Positions 1,145 to 24,889 are shown, numbered from the stretch's first letter. The stretch: DNA of 54,422 nucleotides from an uncultured Pseudomonadales bacterium (GCA_964492495.1 CAZBKJ010000003.1:1-54422), one strand, 5' to 3'. Translations and numbers: made by a program. Notes: a model not told the origin generated them from the letters alone.

Positions 1145-2104
1145 ATGGATATACAAAAGCAACCAAAGATTGTCGTCACTGGAGGAACAGGGTTTGCTGG
1201 CTCCCACTTGATTGAGCAACTTTTAGCCAAAGGCTATACAAACATTTTTTCCACAACTTTTTCTGCCGTCGATCCAAGTCTTCGATTCTTGCCTGATGAT
1301 CACTACCGCAAAGTTGATCTCAGCAGTCCCGAAGCTACTGAGGAATTTTTCAAAGAGATTCAACCTGACTGGGTGTTTCATTTAGCATCGTTTGCATACG
1401 TTGGAAAGAGTTTTGATAAAGCCCGTGAGCTCTTTGCAAACAACATCAATCTGCAGCTTAATGTTTTGGAAAGTATTAAAAATCATGCTAAAAACGCAAA
1501 AATTCTGACTATTGGTTCTGCAGAAGAGTATGGTATGGTGACTCCACCTTTAGAAAAGATTGATGAATCAGTCGGTCTCTTCCCGGTTAATCCATACGCA
1601 GTCTCTAAAGTTACTCAAGATTTGTTAGCACACAGTTATTTTTTGTCATTTAATCTACATATTGTCAGAGCTCGACCGTTTAATCATATTGGGACAAGAC
1701 AAACAGGCGATTTTGCTGTCCCCGCATTTGTAAAACAAATTGTGGCTATAGAAAAGGGCGAACAAAAAACACTGCGAGTGGGCAACTTGGATGCGGTTCG
1801 AGATTTTTCAAGTGTTGTTGATGTTGTTCAGGCGTACATACTACTCATGGAAAAAGGTGTAGAAGGCGAGGTATACAACATTGGCTCGGGAGTGGGAATT
1901 CAAATTGAGGCTGTTGTACAGAAACTTTCTTCTATGGCAAACGTGCCAATTGTTGTAGAAACTGACCCAGGGCGAATCCGACCGCTTGACGTACCGGGCT
2001 TAATTGCTGACAATGGAAAGATGAGGTCGCTCGGTTGGGAACCAAAAGTATCGATTGATGAAGAACTACAAAATGTACTGGATGAGTGGAGAAAGAAGGA
2101 GTAG
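1145..2104 (+). CDS. rmd: SDR-family NAD(P)-dependent sugar reductase, probable GDP-4-dehydro-6-deoxy-D-mannose reductase (GDP-D-rhamnose forming)
   Basis: Start moved to ATG 1145 (MDIQKQPKIVVTGGTGFAGSHL) because the listed 1106 start overlaps ugd. It has a Rossmann GxxGxxG and a catalytic YAVSK. The blocks ILTIGSAEEYGM, FNHIGTRQ and VGNLDAVRDFSSVVDVVQAY match Rmd-type reductases as I recall them. It lies directly upstream of gmd. Confidence 0.7.
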   Translation: MDIQKQPKIVVTGGTGFAGSHLIEQLLAKGYTNIFSTTFSAVDPSLRFLPDDHYRKVDLSSPEATEEFFKEIQPDWVFHLASFAYVGKSFDKARELFANNINLQLNVLESIKNHAKNAKILTIGSAEEYGMVTPPLEKIDESVGLFPVNPYAVSKVTQDLLAHSYFLSFNLHIVRARPFNHIGTRQTGDFAVPAFVKQIVAIEKGEQKTLRVGNLDAVRDFSSVVDVVQAYILLMEKGVEGEVYNIGSGVGIQIEAVVQKLSSMANVPIVVETDPGRIRPLDVPGLIADNGKMRSLGWEPKVSIDEELQNVLDEWRKKE

Positions 2105-2214: not shown

Positions 2215-3186
2215 ATGAAAAAGGCATTTATTACTGGAGTTACCGGACAAGATGGCTCCTACTTAGCTGAGTTGCTGTTGGAAAAAGGTTACATCGTCTA
2301 CGGAATGAACCGACGAAGTAGTACACAAAACTACTCTCGTATTGAACATATTATTCATCAAAACAACTTCGAACTGGTGTCAGGAGACTTGACTGATGAA
2401 CACTCCATCACCAGTGCGCTGGCGGAGATCCAGCCAGATGAAGTCTATAACCTAGCTGCTCAGTCATTTGTTCATGCTTCATGGAAACAACCGGTGCTTA
2501 CCGGAGAATACACTGGCCTTGGAGTCACACGTATGCTTGAAGCTGTACGTTATGTCTGTCCAAATACACGCTTTTATCAAGCAAGCTCGTCAGAAATGTT
2601 TGGAAAAGTCCAAGAAGTTCCACAAAAAGAATCAACCCCATTCTATCCTCGCTCACCGTATGGTGTAGCCAAAGTATATGGTCACTGGATTACTGTAAAC
2701 TACCGAGAGTCGTTTGATTTGTTCGCTGTTTCTGGGATTCTATTCAATCATGAATCACCTCGTCGAGGGCTTGAGTTTGTTACAAGAAAAATTGCCAATG
2801 CAGTTGCCCGAATCAAATATGGAAAACAGGAAAAAGTAAAACTTGGAAATATGGATGCGAAGCGAGACTGGGGATATGCAAAAGACTATGTGGAAGCCAT
2901 GTGGTTGATGCTGCAACAAGAAACACCTGAGGATTTTGTTATCTCAACCGGTGAAACACACTCTGTCAGGGAATTCCTCGAAGAAGCATGTAAAGTTGCA
3001 AAAATTTCTGACTGGGAAAGTATCATTGAGCACGATCCGAAGTACGATCGACCAGCAGAAGTCGATCTCTTGATCGGCGATGCGTCAAAAGCGAAAAAAA
3101 TCCTGGGATGGGAACCTAAAACAAGCTTTAAGGAACTGGTGAAGATCATGGTTGAGGCAGAACTGGAAGCGGAGAAAGATAAGTAG
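2215..3186 (+). CDS. gmd: GDP-mannose 4,6-dehydratase
   Basis: [44 protein letters not shown] (YxxxK) and NHESPRRG are classic Gmd blocks. The start is taken at ATG 2215 rather than the 14-codon upstream extension. Confidence 0.92.
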
Positions 3187-3235
3187 ATCAGTAAGACTAG
3201 TAGATTAGTAGGACTAGTGAGATTAGTGGATTAGA
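3186..3235. repeat. TAG/TAA-rich 8-9-nt tandem array (GAYYAGTRR)x6 starting at the gmd stop codon
   Basis: gatcagtaa gactagta gattagtag gactagtga gattagtg gattaga. It belongs to the same unit family and has the same 3' end (gattagtggattaga) as 2107-2139. Confidence 0.9.
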
Positions 3236-3260
3236 ACAGGCAAACGATAACAAGGACAAA

Positions 3261-3417
3261 GGTTCAAGGTTTCATGGGTCAGAGCTTCTCCACTCCATGT
3301 TGCCTCAACGGCAACTTGGGTAGTCGAAGAATAAAAGGGAGAGGTTCAAGGTATCAGAGGTCAGAGCTTCTCCACTCCATGTTGCCTCAACGGCAACTTG
3401 GGTAGTTTAAAGAATAA
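3261..3417. repeat. Two tandem copies (82-nt period) of a hairpin-containing intergenic element
   Basis: The 48-nt core ggtcagagcttctccactccatgttgcctcaacggcaacttgggtagt is identical at 3277-3324 and 3359-3406. It includes the stem ccatgttgcc/ggcaacttgg around the loop tcaac. Confidence 0.9.
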
Positions 3418-3449
3418 TAGCGAAATAGAGACGAGAAAACAGAAGTTTT

Positions 3450-6170: not shown

Positions 6171-7706
6171 ATGAAATTTTTTGCTAAAAGGAAGGTGGAA
6201 ATAGGACTCCTTCTTTTTTTATGTATTGTCGCTTTTTACTTGCGCTCCTACGGACTATACCGTGATCTTTTGTTTGCGTATGACCAAGGACGAGATGCGT
6301 TCGCAACTCAAAAAATTCTTCAAGGTGATATTACGCTCATCGGTCCAACGACAGGACTTACGGGAGTATTCCTTGGTCCATTTTGGTTTTACTTTATCAC
6401 TCCGTTGTATTTGATTGGATCGGGTAGTCCCATGGTCGCGGCATACGTGATGGCACTCTTTCATGTTGGGGTCGTCCTTCTTTTGTATCTCTTTGCGTCA
6501 AAAGTTGCAGGAAAAACAGCAGGTTTTGCAACAAGCATCCTCTATACCTTTTCCTTCTCCAATATTTTGTTCTCTCGTTGGTTATCAAATCCGACTACAC
6601 TGCCATTTTTTGCGTTGCTTGGCTTTTATTTACTCTGGAAAGCGATAGAAGAAAAAAAGCTGAAATTTTTTGTCCTTTCCGGCGTCGTTTTTGGTATTTG
6701 TTTGCAGTTGGAAGCTGCAAATGCAGTATGGTTTATCCCAACAGTTGCACTCATCGTACTCTACGAGTACGTAATCCTATCCTGGAAAAACATACAAGAA
6801 TTTCGATCTCATAAACTCCAGCCGTTACTTCAAAATCTTTTTGGTCTAGGACTGGGTGGTGTGATGACGCTTGTACCTCAATTTATTTTTGAGCTAAAAC
6901 ACAATTTTTTGGTAACAAAGAATCTCATTGCTGCCTTTCAGACAACTCATGAGAAAACGCTCTCAGATATTTTCGTTGATAGAGTGGAGCTTCTCTATGA
7001 ATTATACGCAAGGGGGCTTTTTGTAAACCATCACTGGCTATTTGGTGTAACCCTCATCTTCCTGCTTGGTTGTATCGCTTTCTATTGGAAACAGCTTTGG
7101 AGTTCGCGTGGATGGCGAATGATATTTTTGTGGTTTGTTGTGCCGTTGGTGTTTCATGCGACATACACTGGGAATCATGGAAATTTCTGGGATTACTATA
7201 TTCTTTCGCAACATCTAGTTTTGTATCTCCTTCTCGTGACTACATTTGTAATTGTGCTTCAACAGAATCCAAAGAATGTGATTCTAAAACTTGGGCTTGG
7301 CGTGTTTGTTGTCGTTTCGGCTATGCTAAATTTTGCAAAATGGACAGAAATACTGCAACCATACGAGAACCGGTATTCACTCCAGATGCAAGTTGATGAA
7401 ACACATTGGATGATCGAACAGGCAAGTGGTGAAGACTATGGTGTATGGGTCTACGCCCCAAACTATCAGGATGACCCGCATCGTTATGTATTTTCCTGGA
7501 TCGGGAAGAAAACAGGCATACAGCCAAAAGAGCATGTAGAACAACAACCACTCATCTTCCTTGCCGTGGAAGAAGATGGCTATTTCCCAGCTCGAAGAGA
7601 AGCATGGATTCGAGAAAAAATGGCGTTCGGTGAGCTTCTTGCCACAAAAAAATTTGGAGCGATAACTGTGTATAAACTCAAAAACACCTTTATTCAAAAG
7701 CAGTAG
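6171..7706 (+). CDS. Polytopic membrane protein, putative GT-C glycosyltransferase, DQGRD subfamily paralogue
   Basis: 511 aa. The YDQGRDAFATQKIL...GPTTGLTGVFLGPFWFYF block is collinear with 4658-6160, and the protein is multi-TM throughout. Confidence 0.7.
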   Translation: MKFFAKRKVEIGLLLFLCIVAFYLRSYGLYRDLLFAYDQGRDAFATQKILQGDITLIGPTTGLTGVFLGPFWFYFITPLYLIGSGSPMVAAYVMALFHVGVVLLLYLFASKVAGKTAGFATSILYTFSFSNILFSRWLSNPTTLPFFALLGFYLLWKAIEEKKLKFFVLSGVVFGICLQLEAANAVWFIPTVALIVLYEYVILSWKNIQEFRSHKLQPLLQNLFGLGLGGVMTLVPQFIFELKHNFLVTKNLIAAFQTTHEKTLSDIFVDRVELLYELYARGLFVNHHWLFGVTLIFLLGCIAFYWKQLWSSRGWRMIFLWFVVPLVFHATYTGNHGNFWDYYILSQHLVLYLLLVTTFVIVLQQNPKNVILKLGLGVFVVVSAMLNFAKWTEILQPYENRYSLQMQVDETHWMIEQASGEDYGVWVYAPNYQDDPHRYVFSWIGKKTGIQPKEHVEQQPLIFLAVEEDGYFPARREAWIREKMAFGELLATKKFGAITVYKLKNTFIQKQ

Positions 7707-7761: not shown

Positions 7762-8511
7762 ATGCTAGTATCAATCATTTTTCCTTCCTATAACGAAATG
7801 TCTAATGTCAAAAAGGGTGTTCTTGATGACGTTATCACCTACTTAGGCACCGTAGACTGGGCTTGGGAGGTGTTACTGGCTGATGATGGATCCACCGATG
7901 GAACAGCAAGAGAACTTGAAAAATTTGCCTCGTCACATCCAAACGTTCGATATATTCCGCTTCCACATAGAGGGAAAGGTCCGACCGTTCTTGAAGCACT
8001 TCAAAAAGCAAAAGGAGATATTCGATTGTTTTCTGATTTTGATCAGGCAACCCCGCTCACGGAGATTGAAAAACTTCTTCCGTTTGTTGAAAAAGACTAT
8101 GATGTTGTGATTGGTTCTCGTGAAGTTCAGGGAGCTGAACGAAAGAGAGAGCCAATACATCGACATTTAATGGGAAAAGGATTTAATTTTTTGGTAAAAA
8201 TCATCGCGATTGGTGGAATTGCAGACACACAGTGCGGATTTAAGCTTTTTACCAAGAAAGCTGTTGACCTTTTGGCACCAAAAGTTTATGTGTACTCTGG
8301 AAAAGGCGAGCTCTCGGGAGCATTTACTGGAGCGTTTGATGTTGAGCTACTGTATCTTGCAAAGAAGTATAAACTGAAGATTGCAGAAGTGCCGGTATTT
8401 TGGAAGTATGTGAAAACATCTCGAGTTGATCCGGTCATTGACTCAATTAAAATGCTCAAAGATATTATTCGAATTCGAGTTGCAGATTTGAACGGGTTGT
8501 ACAAAGACTGA
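7762..8511 (+). CDS. GT2 polyprenol-phosphate beta-glycosyltransferase (ALG5/dolichyl-phosphate glucosyltransferase-like)
   Basis: IIFPSYNE, LADDGSTDGT, SDFDQATP and DTQCGFKLF form the ALG5/GtrB-like pattern. It is a 249-aa soluble GT2. Confidence 0.8.
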   Translation: MLVSIIFPSYNEMSNVKKGVLDDVITYLGTVDWAWEVLLADDGSTDGTARELEKFASSHPNVRYIPLPHRGKGPTVLEALQKAKGDIRLFSDFDQATPLTEIEKLLPFVEKDYDVVIGSREVQGAERKREPIHRHLMGKGFNFLVKIIAIGGIADTQCGFKLFTKKAVDLLAPKVYVYSGKGELSGAFTGAFDVELLYLAKKYKLKIAEVPVFWKYVKTSRVDPVIDSIKMLKDIIRIRVADLNGLYKD

Positions 8512-16503: not shown

Positions 16504-17315
16504 GTGCTGTCATCATCACCAAAGATGAAGAAGCCATGATTGCGAATTGTTTGGCTTCACTGCGCTTCACTGATGAAATTATTGTGGTGGATTCCGGCTC
16601 AAGCGACAATACTGTAGGTATCGCAAACAGAGAGGGAACAAAAATTATTCAAGTGACAGGTGGAAGTTTTAAGGATTGGCGAAACGCTGGTATGGATGCA
16701 AGCACCATGGATTGGATTTTGTATATCGATGCTGATGAACGAGTGACACCGAAGCTCGCTGATGAGATCGTGAAATCAATTCAGTTTACTTCAAACGCAG
16801 CATACGCTCTTGCGAGGAATAATATCCACTTTGGGAAATGGATGGAGCATGGAGGATGGGAAGAAGATAAAATAGTTAGACTTTTTAAGCGCTCTCATCT
16901 AAAAAAATGGTCAGGTGATGTTCACGAAAGTGCAAGTGTTGAGGGAGTTGTAGGACTGTTACAAGAACCACTTGCTCATTTAACGCATAGAAATATACGG
17001 GATGGACTCATCAAGTCCTATACGTGGACTGATATCGAAGCAAAGCTACTTCTTGATGCTGGCACAAAGCCAGTGAAGCCATTTACCCTCGTTCGTAAGT
17101 TTTTAATGGAGTTTATCCGAAGGCTCATCATAAAAAAGGGTTACAAAGATGGAATGGAGGGATGGATTGAATCTTTTCAGCAGGCAATCAATCGCTTTTT
17201 TGTGTATGAAAGACTCTGGGAGTTGCAACAGAAACCGTCACTCGATGAGAGGTATCAGGCAATTGAAAAAGAAATTGTACGTTCCTGGAATCAAAAAAAT
17301 AAAAAGGGAAAATAG
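16464..17315 (+). CDS. GT2 glycosyltransferase (WaaE/KdtX-like subfamily), paralogue 2
   Basis: ISAVIITKDEE, VVDSGSSDNT, YIDADERV and FGKWMEHGGWEEDKIVRLFKR. The listed start overlaps the upstream gene by 40 nt, and there is no later in-frame ATG before the conserved N-terminus. Confidence 0.78.
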   Translation: MGQSTSQTSKQTISAVIITKDEEAMIANCLASLRFTDEIIVVDSGSSDNTVGIANREGTKIIQVTGGSFKDWRNAGMDASTMDWILYIDADERVTPKLADEIVKSIQFTSNAAYALARNNIHFGKWMEHGGWEEDKIVRLFKRSHLKKWSGDVHESASVEGVVGLLQEPLAHLTHRNIRDGLIKSYTWTDIEAKLLLDAGTKPVKPFTLVRKFLMEFIRRLIIKKGYKDGMEGWIESFQQAINRFFVYERLWELQQKPSLDERYQAIEKEIVRSWNQKNKKGK

Positions 17316-17338
17316 GAGACAGAGGACAGAGGCAAGGG

Positions 17339-17412
17339 ACGAGATAGTAGATACGAAAGGGATCCTTCGACTACGGCCAGCTTAGCTAGCCCACGCTCAG
17401 GATGACACACAC
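17339..17412. repeat. 74-nt intergenic element, copy 1 (hairpin with GGATCC...AGGATGACA flanks)
   Basis: It matches 22702-22775 at 70 of 74 positions and has a central palindrome ggccagc tta gctagcc. Confidence 0.9.
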
Positions 17413-17496
17413 GGGGCGAGGGACGAGGTACAAGGTACAAGGGACGAGAAGATAGCAGGGGCAAGGTACAAGGTTTCAGGGGTCAGGAGATAGCAG
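17413..17496. repeat. Degenerate 7-nt-periodic purine-rich array
   Basis: ggggcga gggacga ggtacaa ggtacaa gggacga gaagata gcagggg caaggta caaggtt tcagggg tcaggag atagcag. Confidence 0.8.
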
Positions 17497-17529
17497 TTCA
17501 TTGTTTTTAGAACAATAGCAAGAATGCCT

Positions 17530-17582
17530 GGATCCCCGACGCAGGCTATCACGCTAAGCGTGATGCCTCCTCGAGGATGACA
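17530..17582. repeat. Hairpin element sharing flanks with 17360-17408 but with a different stem
   Basis: ggatcc-ccgac-gc-AGGCtATCACGC-taa-GCGTGATGCCT-cctcg-aggatgaca. The flanks GGATCCyCGAC and CTC(G)AGGATGACA are conserved, while the stem sequence is unrelated. Confidence 0.8.
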
Positions 17583-17588
17583 GAAGGT

Positions 17589-17617
17589 TTGACAAAGCAG
17601 AGTAGTTGATTAGAGAA
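17589..17617 (+). promoter_or_regulatory. Candidate sigma70-type promoter (-35 TTGACA) at the end of the repeat-rich spacer
   Basis: A perfect TTGACA at 17589-17594 is followed 16 nt later by a weak -10 (TAGAGA). A parallel ttgacaaa(c/g)(g/c)agag box occurs at 22904-22920 before the next gene block. The -10 elements are poor and lie very close to the start codons. Confidence 0.3.
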
Positions 17618-17625
17618 AGTAGACG

Positions 17626-20997: not shown

Positions 20998-22581
20998 ATG
21001 CAGTACAATGGAATTATTGTGAAAGTTACACTACTGTTGTTCTGTATCATTATTCTGGCTTTTCTCAGCCGATTCTATCAACTCGGCTCTTTTCCATCGG
21101 GAATGACTTGGGATGAAACAGCTATAGGATATAACGCATACGGTTTGGTGGTCAATCATCGAGATGAGTGGCTCAAAAGAACGCCGGTTGTTTTCCAATC
21201 ATTTGGCGACTATAAATCTCCGCTTTTGATCTATCTCACTTCACTCCCTGTTGCTCTTTTTGGCTTAAACGCATTGTCTGTCCGACTACCTGTGGCAATC
21301 TCTGGGCTTGGTCTTGTGGTTGTTACCTACTTTTTATCAAAAGAAATTTTTTTGCTCCATGAGAAGAAAGAAAACCGTTTCGGGTGGGTGTATCCACTTT
21401 TTGCCACTTTTTGCATAACTATTTCCCCTTGGGCAGTTCATTTTTCACGAATGGGATTTGAATCAATGCTGTCTGCGTTCTTGGTAAGTCTGGGGGTTTT
21501 GGGGCTCTTGCTTTGGAAAAGAACTCAGGCTGTGCGTCTTTCGATTCTTTTTCTTGTTGGTGGGTGTTTGAGTTTTGTTTTGGCTCTCTACGCATACCAT
21601 AGTGCAAAAGTTGTCGTACCGCTGACTATGCTTATTTTAATTCCTGTTTTTTGGACGAAAGCTGCGACACATTTCAAACAGATAGCTCTTGCAGTAGTTG
21701 TTTCCTGTGTTGCTATCTCACCACTCATCTATGTAACGGTGTATGGCAAAGCAAATGAGCGTGCGCTTTCAACAACAATTTTTAGTAAGCCAAATGCGCT
21801 CAGTCAGTTTGTTCAAAACTACGGGGAGCATCTTTCTTTGGAGTTTTTACTCAAAGGGAAGGACGTAACGTTTCGGCATGGTACGAAAGAGATGGGAGTT
21901 TCATTTCCCATTGAACTCATTCTTTTTTGTGTCGGTCTTCTTTCTATATTGCTCAAGAAAGACAAAAGATCAATGTGGTGGATCCCTGCATTGTTTTTCA
22001 CTGGATTGATTCCTGCGGCTCTTGGGACAGACATTCCGCACGCGAATCGATCCTTGTTATCTTTGCCATGGTTACAGATAACTGCAGCAATCGGTTTGTC
22101 TTCAGTTGCTACACAAGTATCTTCCTGCGTTGAGAAAAGAAACATCCACCTACGTACCTATAGTGTGTATACAGTTTTCTTTCTGGTGTTTTTATTTGTG
22201 AGTCACAGTTTTTATAACTATGTTCGAACGTACAAAAGAGTTTTTACCTCTGTCGCGCCGTTGTCTGAGATGGGATATGGCTATAAAGAAGCGATAGCGT
22301 ACGCAATTGAGCATGAAAACGAAGTCGATACTGTCTATTTTACGAATTTTTATGGACAGGCATATATTTATTTGTTGTTTTTCAAACAACTTACACCCAT
22401 AGAATACAGAGGTGGTGCGCTCGCTAACTACACAATCACGGACAAACCGTATGAAGATTCCAGAGGTCGATCGCGAGTCCTTCTCATTGGAACAGGTGAT
22501 CAAATCCCTACAACTGGCAATGTTGTGAAGGAAATACTGTATCCTGATGGGAAAGTGGCGTTTCGGATTGTGAAACAGTGA
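20998..22581 (+). CDS. GT-C glycosyltransferase (GT39/PMT-ArnT-like), WDE...FGDYK subfamily
   Basis: The MTWDETAIGYNAYGL...HRDEWL...FQSFGDYKSPLLIY first loop, AISPWAVHFSR and many TM segments are present. It is paralogous to 23180-24889 and 25742-27411 (-). Confidence 0.75.
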   Translation: MQYNGIIVKVTLLLFCIIILAFLSRFYQLGSFPSGMTWDETAIGYNAYGLVVNHRDEWLKRTPVVFQSFGDYKSPLLIYLTSLPVALFGLNALSVRLPVAISGLGLVVVTYFLSKEIFLLHEKKENRFGWVYPLFATFCITISPWAVHFSRMGFESMLSAFLVSLGVLGLLLWKRTQAVRLSILFLVGGCLSFVLALYAYHSAKVVVPLTMLILIPVFWTKAATHFKQIALAVVVSCVAISPLIYVTVYGKANERALSTTIFSKPNALSQFVQNYGEHLSLEFLLKGKDVTFRHGTKEMGVSFPIELILFCVGLLSILLKKDKRSMWWIPALFFTGLIPAALGTDIPHANRSLLSLPWLQITAAIGLSSVATQVSSCVEKRNIHLRTYSVYTVFFLVFLFVSHSFYNYVRTYKRVFTSVAPLSEMGYGYKEAIAYAIEHENEVDTVYFTNFYGQAYIYLLFFKQLTPIEYRGGALANYTITDKPYEDSRGRSRVLLIGTGDQIPTTGNVVKEILYPDGKVAFRIVKQ

Positions 22582-22593
22582 GGAGAGGACAGA

Positions 22594-22649
22594 GGCAAGG
22601 GGCAAGGGGTCAGAGGCAAGGGGCAAGGTATCAGAGGTCAGGTTTCAGG
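22594..22649. repeat. Clean heptad array (8 units) with a 21-nt super-repeat
   Basis: ggcaagg ggcaagg ggtcaga ggcaagg ggcaagg tatcaga ggtcagg tttcagg. A weaker 7-nt periodicity continues to about 22701. Confidence 0.9.
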
Positions 22650-22701
22650 GACGATGCATACGAAGACGATAGCGGGTACTAGGTACGAGTAGATAGCAGG
22701 A

Positions 22702-22775
22702 ACGAGATAGTAGATACGAAAGGGATCCTTCGACTACGGCTAGCTGAGCTAGCCTGCGCTCAGGATGACACACAC
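22702..22775. repeat. 74-nt intergenic element, copy 2
   Basis: 70 of 74 positions are identical to 17339-17412. The central palindrome ggctagc tga gctagcc is perfect. Confidence 0.9.
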
Positions 22776-22820
22776 AGAGAAGTTGAAAAAGTCTAGGTAC
22801 GAGTAATGAGTGAAGAGAGA

Positions 22821-22899
22821 ACTTCTCGACTGCGGCTAGCTGAGCTAGCCTGCGCTCGAAGAATAAAAAGAATGCGCCTCATCGCTCGAAGAATAAAAT
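22821..22899. repeat. Hairpin element with CTTCTCGACTGC...GCTCGAAGAATAAAA flanks, plus a second partial tail copy
   Basis: acttctcgactgc-GGCTAGC-tga-GCTAGCC-tgcgctcgaagaataaaaag is followed by gcgcctcatcgctcgaagaataaaatg. The flanks resemble those of the 3277-3335 element (gcttctccactcc...gtagtcgaagaataaaagg), but the stem differs. Confidence 0.8.
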
Positions 22900-22930
22900 G
22901 GGATTGACAAACGAGAGGAAAAAAATAAAA

Positions 22931-22936
22931 AGGAGG
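22931..22936 (+). promoter_or_regulatory. Shine-Dalgarno AGGAGG for the DUF1653-like gene
   Basis: A perfect AGGAGG lies 5 nt upstream of ATG 22942. Confidence 0.6.
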
Positions 22937-22941
22937 ATTCT

Positions 22942-23175
22942 ATGGAAGATCAGAACAGAAAAATAGTTGTTGGAGGCACATACAAGCACTTCAAAGGAAA
23001 TAGATACTTTGTTCTGGCAGTTGGAAAACACAGTGAGACGCAGGAAGATCTCGTTGTGTATCTGCCTTTATACGTATCAGATCATACGCAGGTCTGGGTA
23101 CGTCCACTCTCGATGTTTTTGGAAGAGATTGAGCTTGATGGAAAAAAAATTGAGCGTTTCATGCTTGTGAAGTAA
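22942..23175 (+). CDS. DUF1653-like small protein
   Basis: 77 aa. The YKHFKGNRYFVLAVGKHSETQEDLVVYLPLY...VWVRPLSMF pattern matches the DUF1653 family as I recall it. A strong AGGAGG Shine-Dalgarno lies 5 nt upstream. Confidence 0.65.
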   Translation: MEDQNRKIVVGGTYKHFKGNRYFVLAVGKHSETQEDLVVYLPLYVSDHTQVWVRPLSMFLEEIELDGKKIERFMLVK

Positions 23176-23179
23176 TCGT

Positions 23180-24889
23180 ATGATTGAAAAAATACTCCAT
23201 ATTTTTCAAAAGCAACATATTTTGTTGGTATTTTTTATTATTTTTCTTGCAGGATTTTTTCGTATCTACAGACTTGACCAAGTTCCTCCCTCACCATATT
23301 GGGAAGAGGTAGCACTAGGTTACGATGCATATTCAATACGAACAACAGGCAAGGATCATCATGGAAATTCCTATCCAATGATCGCATTTCCATCATTTGG
23401 AGATTACAAACCCAGCGGGTATTTCTATGCAATCGTTCCTTTTGTCAGAGCTCTTGGCCTAAACATCTGGTCAGTGCGATTGCCTTCAGCGATCGCTGGA
23501 ATACTTTCGGTGGGGTTTGTGTATCTGATTGGCAAGGAGTTATTTGGTAAAAATACTGCAGTTATTTCATCCTTCGTATTCGCCATTTCGCCCTGGGCTA
23601 TTCAGTTTTCTCGAGGAGGGTGGGAGGTAAACCTGTCCATGACCATGATTCTTGCTGGAAGCTGGTTTTTACTTCTTGCCAAGAAAAAGCCACAGTTCCT
23701 GCTCCTTGCGGCAGTCTTTTTTGGTCTTTCAATGTATACGTATCATGCAGCTCGATTATTTGCTCCCATCGTTGGAGGCGTAGGTGGACTGGCCGTGTTG
23801 TACGGATGGTTTTTAGAAAAGAATCAAAATTCAAAATTCAAAATTCAAACCTTCGTACTCATTCATACAAAAAAATTGGGAGTCTTATTCTTATCTTTAA
23901 TCATTGCTTTTATTTTTGTGTTTCCATTCATTGCGAATGTCCAAAATAAAGAAGTTTCGTCTCGCTTTAGTGACACCAGTATTTTTTCTGATATCTCACC
24001 TATACTTCTAAGCAACGCTAAGAAAGAAGAGTACGGAAATTCAGTTTTTGCACGCTTGGTGTATCATCGCTATCGATACTTTGCGCAGATTATTTTCTCT
24101 CAGTGGTCATCTCACTTTTCTCCAAGCTTTTTATTTGTTCGCGGCGATGGAAACTTGAGACACTGGAATGGGAATACGGGAGAATTGTATCCCTTTGATG
24201 CTCTGTTTATTATCGTTTCTCTGCTATGTATTCTTTTCTTCCTGTACAGAAAAATCCAAAATCCAAAATCCAAACTCCAAAACGCACAAATACTTCTTAT
24301 CGTATGGATAATGGTTGCAGCAATTGCTCCATCTCTGGTTACACCGGCACCTCATGCACTGCGATTTTTATACGCTGCACCAGCATTTTCATTGCTTGTT
24401 GCTGTGGGGATCACTCAGTTTTCTGCGCTCCTGACCAAAAAACATCGTCTCGTATTTCTTTTTGTTGTTTTTGTCATCTATCTTTTTTCCTGTAGTCGAT
24501 ACTTTAGTTTGTACATGACAGCCTACCCAGTACAAGCATCTGCGGATTGGCAGTATGGGTATGAACAGCTCTACAGTTGGATCTTTCTACACAAGCAAGC
24601 CAATGAGCAAGTCTACATTTCTCGAAAGCTTGGAAGGCCAGCGATGTATTATCTGTTCTATTCGCACTATGATCCAAGCACGCTACAAGCAATTGAACCG
24701 ACCTTGCCAAAAGACCAACTAGAATTGTTACGAATTGATGACTATCATTTTACCGATAACCCTCCTTTGGATTCTTCTGGAATCTACGCGGTGCTACCTG
24801 GGGCGGTTATAGAAGGCGGCAAGATAATGACAACTATCCTTGACCAAAGTGACAATGCAGTCTGGGTTATTTGGAGAAAAATACTATGA
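23180..24889 (+). CDS. GT-C glycosyltransferase (GT39/PMT-ArnT-like), WEE...FGDYK subfamily
   Basis: PYWEEVALGYDAYSIRTTGKDHHGNSYPMIAFPSFGDYKPSGYFY, AISPWAIQFSR and a multi-TM layout. It contains two heptanucleotide tracts (23825-23852 and 24251-24285). Confidence 0.75.
   Translation: MIEKILHIFQKQHILLVFFIIFLAGFFRIYRLDQVPPSPYWEEVALGYDAYSIRTTGKDHHGNSYPMIAFPSFGDYKPSGYFYAIVPFVRALGLNIWSVRLPSAIAGILSVGFVYLIGKELFGKNTAVISSFVFAISPWAIQFSRGGWEVNLSMTMILAGSWFLLLAKKKPQFLLLAAVFFGLSMYTYHAARLFAPIVGGVGGLAVLYGWFLEKNQNSKFKIQTFVLIHTKKLGVLFLSLIIAFIFVFPFIANVQNKEVSSRFSDTSIFSDISPILLSNAKKEEYGNSVFARLVYHRYRYFAQIIFSQWSSHFSPSFLFVRGDGNLRHWNGNTGELYPFDALFIIVSLLCILFFLYRKIQNPKSKLQNAQILLIVWIMVAAIAPSLVTPAPHALRFLYAAPAFSLLVAVGITQFSALLTKKHRLVFLFVVFVIYLFSCSRYFSLYMTAYPVQASADWQYGYEQLYSWIFLHKQANEQVYISRKLGRPAMYYLFYSHYDPSTLQAIEPTLPKDQLELLRIDDYHFTDNPPLDSSGIYAVLPGAVIEGGKIMTTILDQSDNAVWVIWRKIL
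23825..23852 (+). repeat. Heptanucleotide tandem repeat (CAAAATT)x3 plus CAAACCT inside the GT-C gene
   Basis: caaaatt caaaatt caaaatt caaacct. It encodes the NSKFKIQT loop. Confidence 0.95.
24251..24285 (+). repeat. Heptanucleotide tandem repeat (AAAATCC)x3 plus AAACTCC plus AAAACGC inside the GT-C gene
   Basis: aaaatcc aaaatcc aaaatcc aaactcc aaaacgc. The interval 24250-24280 matches 197-227 in ugd at 30 of 31 nt. Confidence 0.95.

Follow-up and report, generated by a model that had tools for sequence, protein, structure and literature searches.

Hairpins with shared flanks and unrelated stems in a bacterial glycosylation operon are probably copies of a cross-phylum repeat superfamily targeted by Ssn-type nucleases

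Introduction

What kind of element keeps its flanks constant while the hairpin stem between them changes from copy to copy? The question is raised by a 54,422-nucleotide stretch of DNA deposited under an uncultured Pseudomonadales bacterium (GCA_964492495.1 CAZBKJ010000003.1:1-54422; the whole stretch is referred to as the window), in which a hairpin at positions 17530-17582 shares its flanks with other hairpins of unrelated stem. These same-flank hairpins had been described in an initial annotation of the sequence, all of whose quoted sequences are indeed present, and had been read as either a functional RNA or a DNA hairpin recognised by a protein. The hairpins are probably copies of a cross-phylum superfamily of CGTC/TGTC-tagged repeats of the repetitive extragenic palindromic (REP) type, including dRS3/NTS and SRM, which would be targets of Ssn-type nucleases in single-stranded DNA (ssDNA) and which have been inserted in a glycosylation operon.

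The CGTC/TGTC-tagged superfamily, among whose members are dRS3 of Neisseria and RPE-4 and RPE-6 of Rickettsia, is characterised by a CGTC, TGTC or CCTC tag, A-T at stem positions 1 and 2, an 8-9-bp stem, a 4-5-nt loop and a 3-nt tail with the consensus CCA; the repeats mostly form head-to-head dimers, some are intragenic, and no transposase is linked to the CGTC type (Di Nocera et al., 2013, PMC3733652). In a survey of more than 80 species from 8 phyla, CGTC repeats were found only in Proteobacteria, Chlorobi, Bacteroidetes, Spirochaetes and Thermotogae (PMC3733652). The NTS (CGTCATTCCCGCGMAVGCGGGAATCYRG) and the related SRM repeats flank ssn genes (Chenal et al., 2025, PMC11893778). SsnA is a 94-amino-acid (aa) single-domain GIY-YIG protein with the residues Y6, Y17 and E64, which binds the NTS hairpin at nanomolar strength solely as ssDNA of the tag strand and cleaves a few bases upstream, with no binding of double-stranded DNA, RNA or the reverse strand (PMC11893778). 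Critical for SsnA are three bases (GTC) before the palindrome and the C after it (PMC11893778).

Hairpin copies and their structure

The window was found to hold eight copies (E1 to E8) in 23 kb, all in direct orientation and all assigned to the minus strand, none of which lies fully within an open reading frame (ORF). Two of them, E5 and E8, had been absent from the initial annotation. Class 1 is represented by the compound copies E1 (17360-17408; GGATCCTTCGACTACGGCCAGCTTAGCTAGCCCACGCTCAGGATGACA), whose inner stem GGCCAGC/GCTAGCC has one C·A mismatch and whose minus strand reads TGTC-ATCCT-GAGCG..(stem)..GTCGA-AGGAT-CC, and E2 (22723-22771), a near-duplicate with a perfect GGCTAGC/GCTAGCC stem and 94% identity to E1 across 78 nt. 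The copy from which the question arose, E3 (17530-17582; GGATCCCCGACGC-AGGCTATCACGC-TAA-GCGTGATGCCT-CCTCGAGGATGACA), shares the tag and the AT-first outer stem (ATCC/GGAT) with class 1 and has a CCA tail, whereas its body (CCGAC…CTCGA) and its stem of 11 bp are unrelated. On folding, E3 proved more stable than any other copy (-27.8 kcal/mol, z = -3.7), and it is present with other flanks on at least 6 different Logan contigs.

Class 2 comprises E4 (22820-22868), a 'G-type' copy with the body and stem of E2, the outer stem CTTC/GAAG and the tail AATAAAA, and the 'C-type' copies E6 (3285-3336; CTTCTCCAC-CCATGTTGCC-tcaac-GGCAACTTGG-GTAGTCGAAGAATAAAA) and E7 (3367-3419). The flank pattern of E6 is common to many metagenomic copies carrying other stems. 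E7 is a tandem duplicate of E6, located 82 nt downstream with 95% identity and the same stem CCATGTTGCC/GGCAACTTGG, whose 3' flank is degenerate (GTAGTTTAAAGAATAATA). E5 (22874-22898; GCGCCTCATCGCTCGAAGAATAAAA) is a solo 3' half copy; tandem half copies of this kind are typical of the family, with comparable ones at loci L006 and L032 (loci are referred to by L and a number). E8 (2159-2184) is a short canonical hairpin (GGATTCCCATAGACATGGGAATGACA), which reads TGTC-ATTCCCAT-GTCT-ATGGGAAT-CC(A) on the minus strand and folds at -9.6 kcal/mol (z = -2.7). An exact 13-mer, TCGAAGAATAAAA, is present 3 times in the window.

The flanks had initially been taken as single-stranded. Folding indicated otherwise, as ATCCT/AGGAT in class 1 and CTTC/GAAG in class 2 pair with each other and form the base of one long hairpin. 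Above this outer stem a short GA/TC step leads to a mostly unpaired, conserved internal loop (TCGACTnCG / CTnCGCTC) and then to the variable stem, unpaired ends being limited to GG (5') and GACA or AATAAAA (3'). Read on the minus strand, class 1 has an unpaired TGTC tag, an A-T-first stem (ATCCT…AGGAT) and a C right after the palindrome, with a conserved body (GAGCG…GTCGA) surrounding a freely variable apical stem. Class 2 keeps the class-1 body, combined with the outer stem CTTC/GAAG (or GTTC/GAAC) and a TTTTATT head. An additional pair in the internal loop (N14:N39) was considered and discarded, 39 of 51 aligned cells being unpaired. Readings of the flanks as a kink-turn, a hammerhead-like motif or a CsrA site were likewise rejected on inspection of the sequence, with motif positions that do not fit and a GGA that is paired.

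Covariation and distribution of the family

Pairing statistics and a covariance model (R1) were derived from an alignment of 51 copies from other organisms only, containing no window sequence. Paired cells amount to 88.2%; shuffled alignments reach 65.4% and those with slid partners 25-39%. Two-sided changes were observed in 190 cells compared with 61 in shuffles. Compensatory variants are found at all five outer-stem pairs, in copies that had not been selected for their outer stem, namely ATCTT/AAGAT, GTCCT/AGGAC, ATTCT/AGAAT, ATGCT/AGCAT and ATCCC/GGGAT in class 1; class 2 has GTTC/GAAC. The covariation-like pattern suspected from the window is thus real and extends across the family. When applied to the window, model R1 recovered E4 (E = 9e-12), E2 (E = 1e-11) and E1 (E = 2e-10), while E8 was matched weakly (E = 0.5, over the outer stem and tail only), as was E6. 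The hairpins of the window belong to a family with further copies elsewhere and, as had been proposed, are not decaying duplicates. A single weak match was obtained in 63 kb from syntenic relatives.

A pattern scan for class 1 in species-representative genomes returned at least 120 loci with at least 128 copies in at least 8 phyla. The hosts include Acidobacteriota (among them the isolate Occallatibacter savannae), Fibrobacter, Faecousia/Oscillospiraceae, Coriobacteriaceae, Chthoniobacterales, Dormiibacterota, Binataceae, a gammaproteobacterium, and metagenome-assembled genomes (MAGs) of Patescibacteria and Roizmanbacteria. True class-1 copies were also detected in a scan of viral contigs, with 12 on L006, one 4.2-kb phage fragment. 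For class 2, the scan of metagenomes gave at least 120 loci and at least 125 copies, including the 'C-type' to which E6 and E7 belong. Verrucomicrobia and Clostridia are also among the groups reached by these scans. Nearly every copy across the families has its own, almost perfect inner stem, and a stem-less 36-nt form is identical between a Coriobacteriaceae MAG and a Roizmanbacteria MAG. No E3-type pattern was found in the viral contigs, nothing meaningful was returned by BLAST of consensus and composite units against PLSDB plasmids and cultured phages, and literature searches with DNA or peptide strings gave only human primer matches or nothing. As a separate observation, L011, a viral contig with hairpin repeats, has two matches to the Acido-Lenti-1 RNA (RF01687), at 1824-1869 (minus strand) and 2010-2055 (plus strand).

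Similarity to tagged REP and SRM repeats

On the minus strand, E1, E2, E3 and E8 all read TGTC-AT…AT-C, and the tag, the W-Y start of the palindrome and the trailing C are present in each; E3 and E8 have the tail CCA, E1 and E2 the tail CCC. E8, with its TGTC tag, 8-bp stem, GTCT loop and CCA tail, has all the structural features of the tagged superfamily and fits the dRS3 consensus ATTCCC-N8-GGGAAT. In E1, E2 and E3 the AT-first stem is only 4-5 bp long, with an internal loop and then another stem above it, and the class-2 copies (E4, E6 and E7) lack the (C/T)GTC tag and hence the combination of tag and tail. The window elements are, in part, variant members of the CGTC-tagged REPs and SRM. 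The initial annotation had named a match to Rfam or to a known REP family as grounds for dropping its proposal; Rfam is unmatched, while a known REP type, the CGTC/TGTC type, is essentially matched.

The likeness to NTS and SRM consists of the oriented (C/T)GTC tag, the AT-first stem, the C after the palindrome, a hairpin length of about 20-50 nt, what is probably a high number of copies, in clusters and often beside envelope genes, and the flanking of a small single-domain GIY-YIG gene by repeats (here in ten other loci). Unlike NTS and SRM, class 1 has a basal stem of only 5 bp, above which a conserved internal loop (GAGCG / GTCGA) leads to an apical stem that is hypervariable, and class 2 has the TTTTATT head in place of HGTC and is accompanied by a GIY-YIG subfamily of its own, the WKWYVYI.EC type. 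The hosts also differ, as they include bacteria of the candidate phyla radiation (CPR), Acidobacteriota, Firmicutes and viral contigs, and many copies lie within ORFs. With the CGTC-type REPs the copies share the TGTC tag, A-T at the first two stem positions and the CC(A) tail; in addition, intragenic copies occur in other loci, and no transposase cluster is enriched nearby among ORFs of at least 120 aa. In contrast, E1, E2 and E3 form compound hairpins, 49-53 nt in length, and not 8-9-bp stems with a 4-5-nt loop, the window copies are direct and not head-to-head dimers (although inverted dimers are common in other loci), and class 2 is untagged. As with the Rickettsia RPE, copies occur within conserved genes with the frame intact (PBP2 in L071, terminase in L006 and MptA_B in L255), whereas the window copies are never fully within an ORF.

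GIY-YIG genes beside the repeats

In a profile search of all ORFs, ten independent loci proved to contain small GIY-YIG ORFs, 89-109 aa in length (with Pfam PF01541 confirmed on the four that were checked). All ten are flanked by repeats, with a tag-first copy whose distance upstream of the start codon ranges from a few to about 110 nt. The repeat motif was found upstream of 8 of the 10, compared with 7% of 2771 control ORFs (P = 2e-8), which shows that in other organisms GIY-YIG genes are linked to these classes of repeat. In the protein from L141 the residues Y9/Y20/E67 have a spacing equal to that of Y6/Y17/E64 in SsnA; this spacing, the ORF size and PF01541 are in keeping with the ssn type of GIY-YIG domain (cd10448). 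No transposase-like or other protein cluster was enriched near the repeats among ORFs of at least 120 aa, a cut-off which excludes ORFs of ~95 aa and by which the GIY-YIG genes had initially been hidden.

The subtype of the GIY-YIG protein follows the class of repeat. Canonical TGTC hairpins occur at the GIY-YIG genes of L141, L173 and L240, which encode the 'YYVYI..S.RNGTLYIGVTS' subtype. The 'WKWYVYI.EC.DG.YY.G.TW' subtype is found with class-2 or hybrid elements (L221, L252, L202 and L244) and with the C-type copies, of the E6/E7 type, at L223. The remaining two genes, at L027 and L134, are accompanied by class-1 copies.

A further polymorphism was observed in genes of this family. Two paralogous Ssn-like GIY-YIG genes of L158 each have an identical 34-nt insertion, GTGAGCGGGACGCTCACGCAAGCTACGCTTAATA, at 6450-6483 and 8021-8054, which splits the catalytic YIG motif precisely after its Y-I codons and before its G codon and disrupts the frame. 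The same insertion is present in L181, L192 and L254. The orthologue of one L158 copy in L173 (reverse strand) lacks it, giving a clean presence/absence polymorphism.

Insertion and behaviour as DNA repeats

Position relative to genes was tabulated for about 250 copies of both classes, the orientation and ORF-internal counts being based on crude ORF calls. With the copy written as E and neighbouring genes as arrows, class 1 is distributed as >E< 26, <E< 36, >E> 15 and <E> 6, with 32 inside ORFs, and class 2, in the same order, as 17, 15, 10 and 10, with 33 inside ORFs. There is no fixed orientation to genes, and about 25% of the copies lie within ORFs. A 36-nt copy at 7253-7288 of L071 is within a PBP2 transpeptidase ORF, whose frame it leaves intact and in which it is translated as …SVILSERSESKDP…, and copies run through the phage terminase ORF of L006. 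An alignment of PBP2 with PDB entries was considered as proof of clean insertion and set aside, as the L071 copy is in a variable loop and insertion is not demonstrable that way. Element-derived segments were also noted in the MptA_B orthologue of L255, at 1661-1706 and at about 2335, where they read …VLRMT… and …RSGQAVLRMT….

In other loci there are mosaic arrays of copies as well as inverted dimers and half copies in tandem. The window hairpins are multi-copy in the source population, where they occur on many contigs with differing flanks, at raised depth, with variable copy number of the spacer units and in stem-less forms. Three relatives (L255, L256 and L257) have 15 genes colinear with the window. 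The junction between the GT2 and GT1 genes measures -4, -4 and +6 nt in these relatives, compared with 310 nt, including E1 and E3, in the window, and the junction between PMT and PMT_2 measures 8 nt in L255 compared with 598 nt. At both of these junctions, the ones open to comparison with relatives, the window repeats are lineage-specific insertions.

In Rfam 15, no match was obtained in the window at the gathering threshold, and at lax thresholds (E up to 5-10) nothing fell on the elements in the window region or on the 12 copies of L006, and there was nothing in 14 element-rich loci. No copy is followed by a T-tract on either strand, as the initial annotation had also stated; of 12 terminator-like sites between 16000 and 24000 none coincides with an element, and the downstream sequence is purine-rich or A-rich. 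Mismatches in the inner stems are divided between G·T and A·C at 22 vs. 23, and 16 vs. 11. The copies thus behave as DNA repeats and unlike a dedicated regulatory RNA. The hairpins had initially been placed at the 3' ends of plus-strand gene blocks; rather than merely ending such blocks, they sit between co-directional genes of one operon.

Operon context and spacers

The window has a G+C content of ~41%, and genes for GT2, GT1 and PMT_2 glycosyltransferases and for sugar-nucleotide enzymes form a dense cluster on its plus strand. The best protein relatives, at 50-77% identity, are from Woesebacteria/Patescibacteria, and its DNA was detected in wastewater and activated-sludge metagenomes. Exact-protein look-ups for the window proteins returned no record, and a scan of the window for tRNA and tmRNA genes found none. 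The cluster is broken by four exceptionally long spacers (2105-2172, 3187-3449, 17316-17625 and 22582-22941), all of which contain hairpins together with purine-rich tandem units of 7-9 nt.

These tandem units, to which no strand is assigned, always accompany the hairpins in the window. They consist of 9-mers (AGACTAGTA) at 2094-2142, upstream of E8; 8-9-mers (AGATTAGT) followed by GGTTCAAGG-type units at 3173-3284, running into E6; GACAGAG… units at 17314-17359, from the GT2 stop codon to E1, whose copy number varies between strains (e.g., a 14-nt insertion at 17317 in run X2); a 38-nt unit present 2.1 times and built of AGGTACA-type heptamers at 17409-17496, between E1 and E3; and GGCAAGG x5 with AGATAGC… at 22577-22722, upstream of E2. 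Comparable G-rich stretches follow the GACA end of the repeats in L006, L158 and L173.

Heptamer tandem repeats are also present within PMT_2-type coding regions, at 198-227, 23824-23849 and 24251-24282 (AAAATCC x4.3-4.6; TCAAAAT x3.7). As a change in their copy number would alter the frame, phase variation of these genes is possible. An ORF of 77 aa at 22942-23175, which we take to be DUF1653-like, adjoins the repeat block and has no counterpart in the syntenic L255, L256 and L257, for which reason it appears to have been inserted along with that block. For the GDP-mannose 4,6-dehydratase ORF the listed start codon is the ATG at 2173, which falls in the 3' arm of E8; since the Pfam match of the dehydratase begins at residue 19, the true start may be further downstream.

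Discussion

Taken as targets of an Ssn-type nuclease, the hairpins would find an explanation as follows. In the host, a Woesebacteria-like CPR bacterium, repeats and microsatellite-like purine-rich spacers occupy four junctions of a cell-envelope glycosylation operon, and an Ssn-family nuclease, small and consisting of a single GIY-YIG domain, would be encoded elsewhere in the genome. Whenever the minus strand becomes single-stranded, this nuclease would bind the hairpin and cleave upstream of the tag, at a distance of a few bases. It may be expected to read the tag, the basal stem and the C behind the palindrome, while the apical stem need only pair. Such indifference to the apical sequence would result in the pattern of 'same flanks, different stems' from which this analysis set out. 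The role of the system may be, for example, the restriction of incoming or recombining ssDNA near surface-glycan genes, as in Neisseria, or it may be selfish spread; any effect on the operon mRNA, such as a barrier to decay, would be a by-product.

Several observations weigh against this reading. The published SRM pattern (HGTCWYN(0-2)YYVSBRHN(0-5)WNVSBRGN(0-2)RNCYNB) has no match in the window on either strand, shuffles averaging 0.13; E8 fails it because its inner stem is A/T-rich and E1, E2 and E3 because they are too long, and both the compound body and the class-2 head are outside it. Model R1 misses E3 and leaves E6 and E7 unrecovered or weak, with the membership of E3 being based on its shared tag, outer stem and tail and that of E6 and E7 on a shared flank pattern. 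The outer-stem variant GTCCT…AGGAT forms a G·T pair on the plus-type strand and A·C on the tag strand, and with ~9 such copies to 1 of the opposite kind the G·T excess is on the non-tag strand. No GIY-YIG ORF was found in the 54-kb window or in L255-L257, so that the partner in the window's genome is assumed, and no pair of filled and empty sites was encountered among 240 loci. Furthermore, NTS are reported to be rarely intragenic (2%; PMC11893778), compared with the ~25% in ORFs obtained here from crude ORF calls.

Of the two possibilities offered by the initial annotation, the DNA hairpin fits best, on account of the tag, the AT-first stem, the trailing C and the GIY-YIG linkage. A cis-acting structured RNA, acting as a terminator without a U-tract, a 3'-end stabiliser, or a site for RNase III or another binding protein with the flanks as recognition element, is on present evidence quite improbable. 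All window copies are in sense between co-directional genes, and across the family convergent spacers are preferred to divergent ones (26 vs. 6), but over the ~250 copies orientation is not fixed, class 1 favours antisense (36 vs. 15) and about a quarter are within ORFs. The hairpins are predicted to be stable (-12 to -28 kcal/mol), covariation is strong, and the outer stem has about 9 G·T to 1 A·C on the plus strand, yet in the inner stems G·T equals A·C and there is no G·U excess. It has been argued that many REPs act as RNA (Di Nocera et al., PMC3733652), whereas SsnA does not bind RNA (PMC11893778). An RNA of this kind also sits poorly with the lack of any Rfam match or T-tract and with the absence of the blocks in three relatives, whose genes are overlapping or all but adjoining at the corresponding junctions.

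Mobilisation by other means is unlikely, though it accounts for some of the features. REP-like repeats or miniature inverted-repeat transposable elements could be moved by a transposase of the REP-associated tyrosine transposase (RAYT)/HUH-Y1 or DDE type, or could arise by slippage, template switching or recombination, in which case the GIY-YIG genes would be neighbours or targets. In line with this are the mosaics, dimers and ORF-internal copies, reminiscent of REPs and bacterial interspersed mosaic elements (BIMEs), and the near-perfect, copy-specific stems with symmetric mismatches, which are what 'palindrome correction' by template switching is expected to give; moreover, the repeat-gene-repeat layout recalls REPtrons and insertion sequence elements, and GIY-YIG genes are themselves interrupted by a 34-nt insertion. 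The copies share with E. coli-type REP/BIME, and with REPINs and their RAYT, the short palindromes in mosaic clusters, a strand-specific tag beside a hairpin that would be recognised as ssDNA and a preference for locations between co-directional and convergent genes. They are unlike them in that no GTAG/GTGG tag and no RAYT is seen and the proposed partner has a GIY-YIG fold and not HUH-Y1. When a GT[AG]G foot was looked for, the window copies proved to be preceded by AAAG or CCTG and no HUH gene was seen near the copies; many Acidobacterial copies are preceded by TAG, but at the untagged end. The hairpins linked to class-3 HUH genes in Solibacter, with a CnGA foot, belong to another sequence family, no transposase is associated with CGTC-type REPs, and no transposase-like cluster is enriched here among ORFs of at least 120 aa. 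Small GIY-YIG genes are the sole gene family seen in a consistent position by the repeats, and hairpins of this type are bound with nanomolar strength by SsnA, a relative of their products. Integron attC sites marking gene cassettes, which also combine conserved paired flanks with a variable centre in imperfect hairpins 3' of genes and are recognised as a folded single strand, can scarcely be entertained: the flanks are GGATCC…GATGACA or CTTCTC…GAATAAAA with no RYYYAAC/GTTRRRY core sites (R and L boxes), no integrase is encoded in the window, from 1 to 13 genes colinear with hairpin-free relatives lie between one hairpin and the next, a cassette organisation is lacking, and copies lie within ORFs and in both orientations. 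Chance similarity, or the decay of local duplicates with no common family, is just as hard to credit; E1/E2 and E6/E7 are near-identical duplicates, but E-values of 9e-12 to 2e-10 were obtained from a model built on other organisms, and hundreds of copies with the same flanks exist in other phyla.

If the hairpins are indeed tagged repeats of this superfamily, what appeared to be a new structured RNA is recast as target-type repeats of site-specific ssDNA nucleases, a proposal that can be tested, and covariation alone is seen to be insufficient for calling such hairpins riboswitch-like RNAs. The range of Ssn/SRM and CGTC-type REPs is extended to CPR bacteria (Woesebacteria-like), Acidobacteriota, gut Clostridia, Fibrobacter and viral contigs, and repeat classes are added which the published SRM pattern misses. 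For annotation, the repeats account for a large class of small ORFs that are spurious and for unusual inserted peptides translated from them, e.g. …VILSERSESKDP… within PBP2 of L071 and …SLRMT…. The correspondence between nuclease subtype and repeat class suggests specificity pairs, which could widen the toolbox for cutting ssDNA.

A more specific proposal, which is put forward tentatively and falls a little short of even likelihood, is that compound class 1 and class 2 (head TTTTATTCTTCGAGCG…) are uncatalogued SRM classes, each with a GIY-YIG subfamily of its own that would read only the tag, the basal stem and the conserved internal loop and place no demand on the sequence of the apical stem. 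In that event the 'WKWYVYI.EC' type would serve class 2 and the 'YYVYI..S.RNGTLYIGVTS' type the canonical TGTC hairpins. Such repeat-nuclease pairs in CPR bacteria could then gate the recombination of incoming ssDNA at surface-glycosylation genes or, alternatively, could be selfish pairs that spread their own target sites, even into ORFs and phages.

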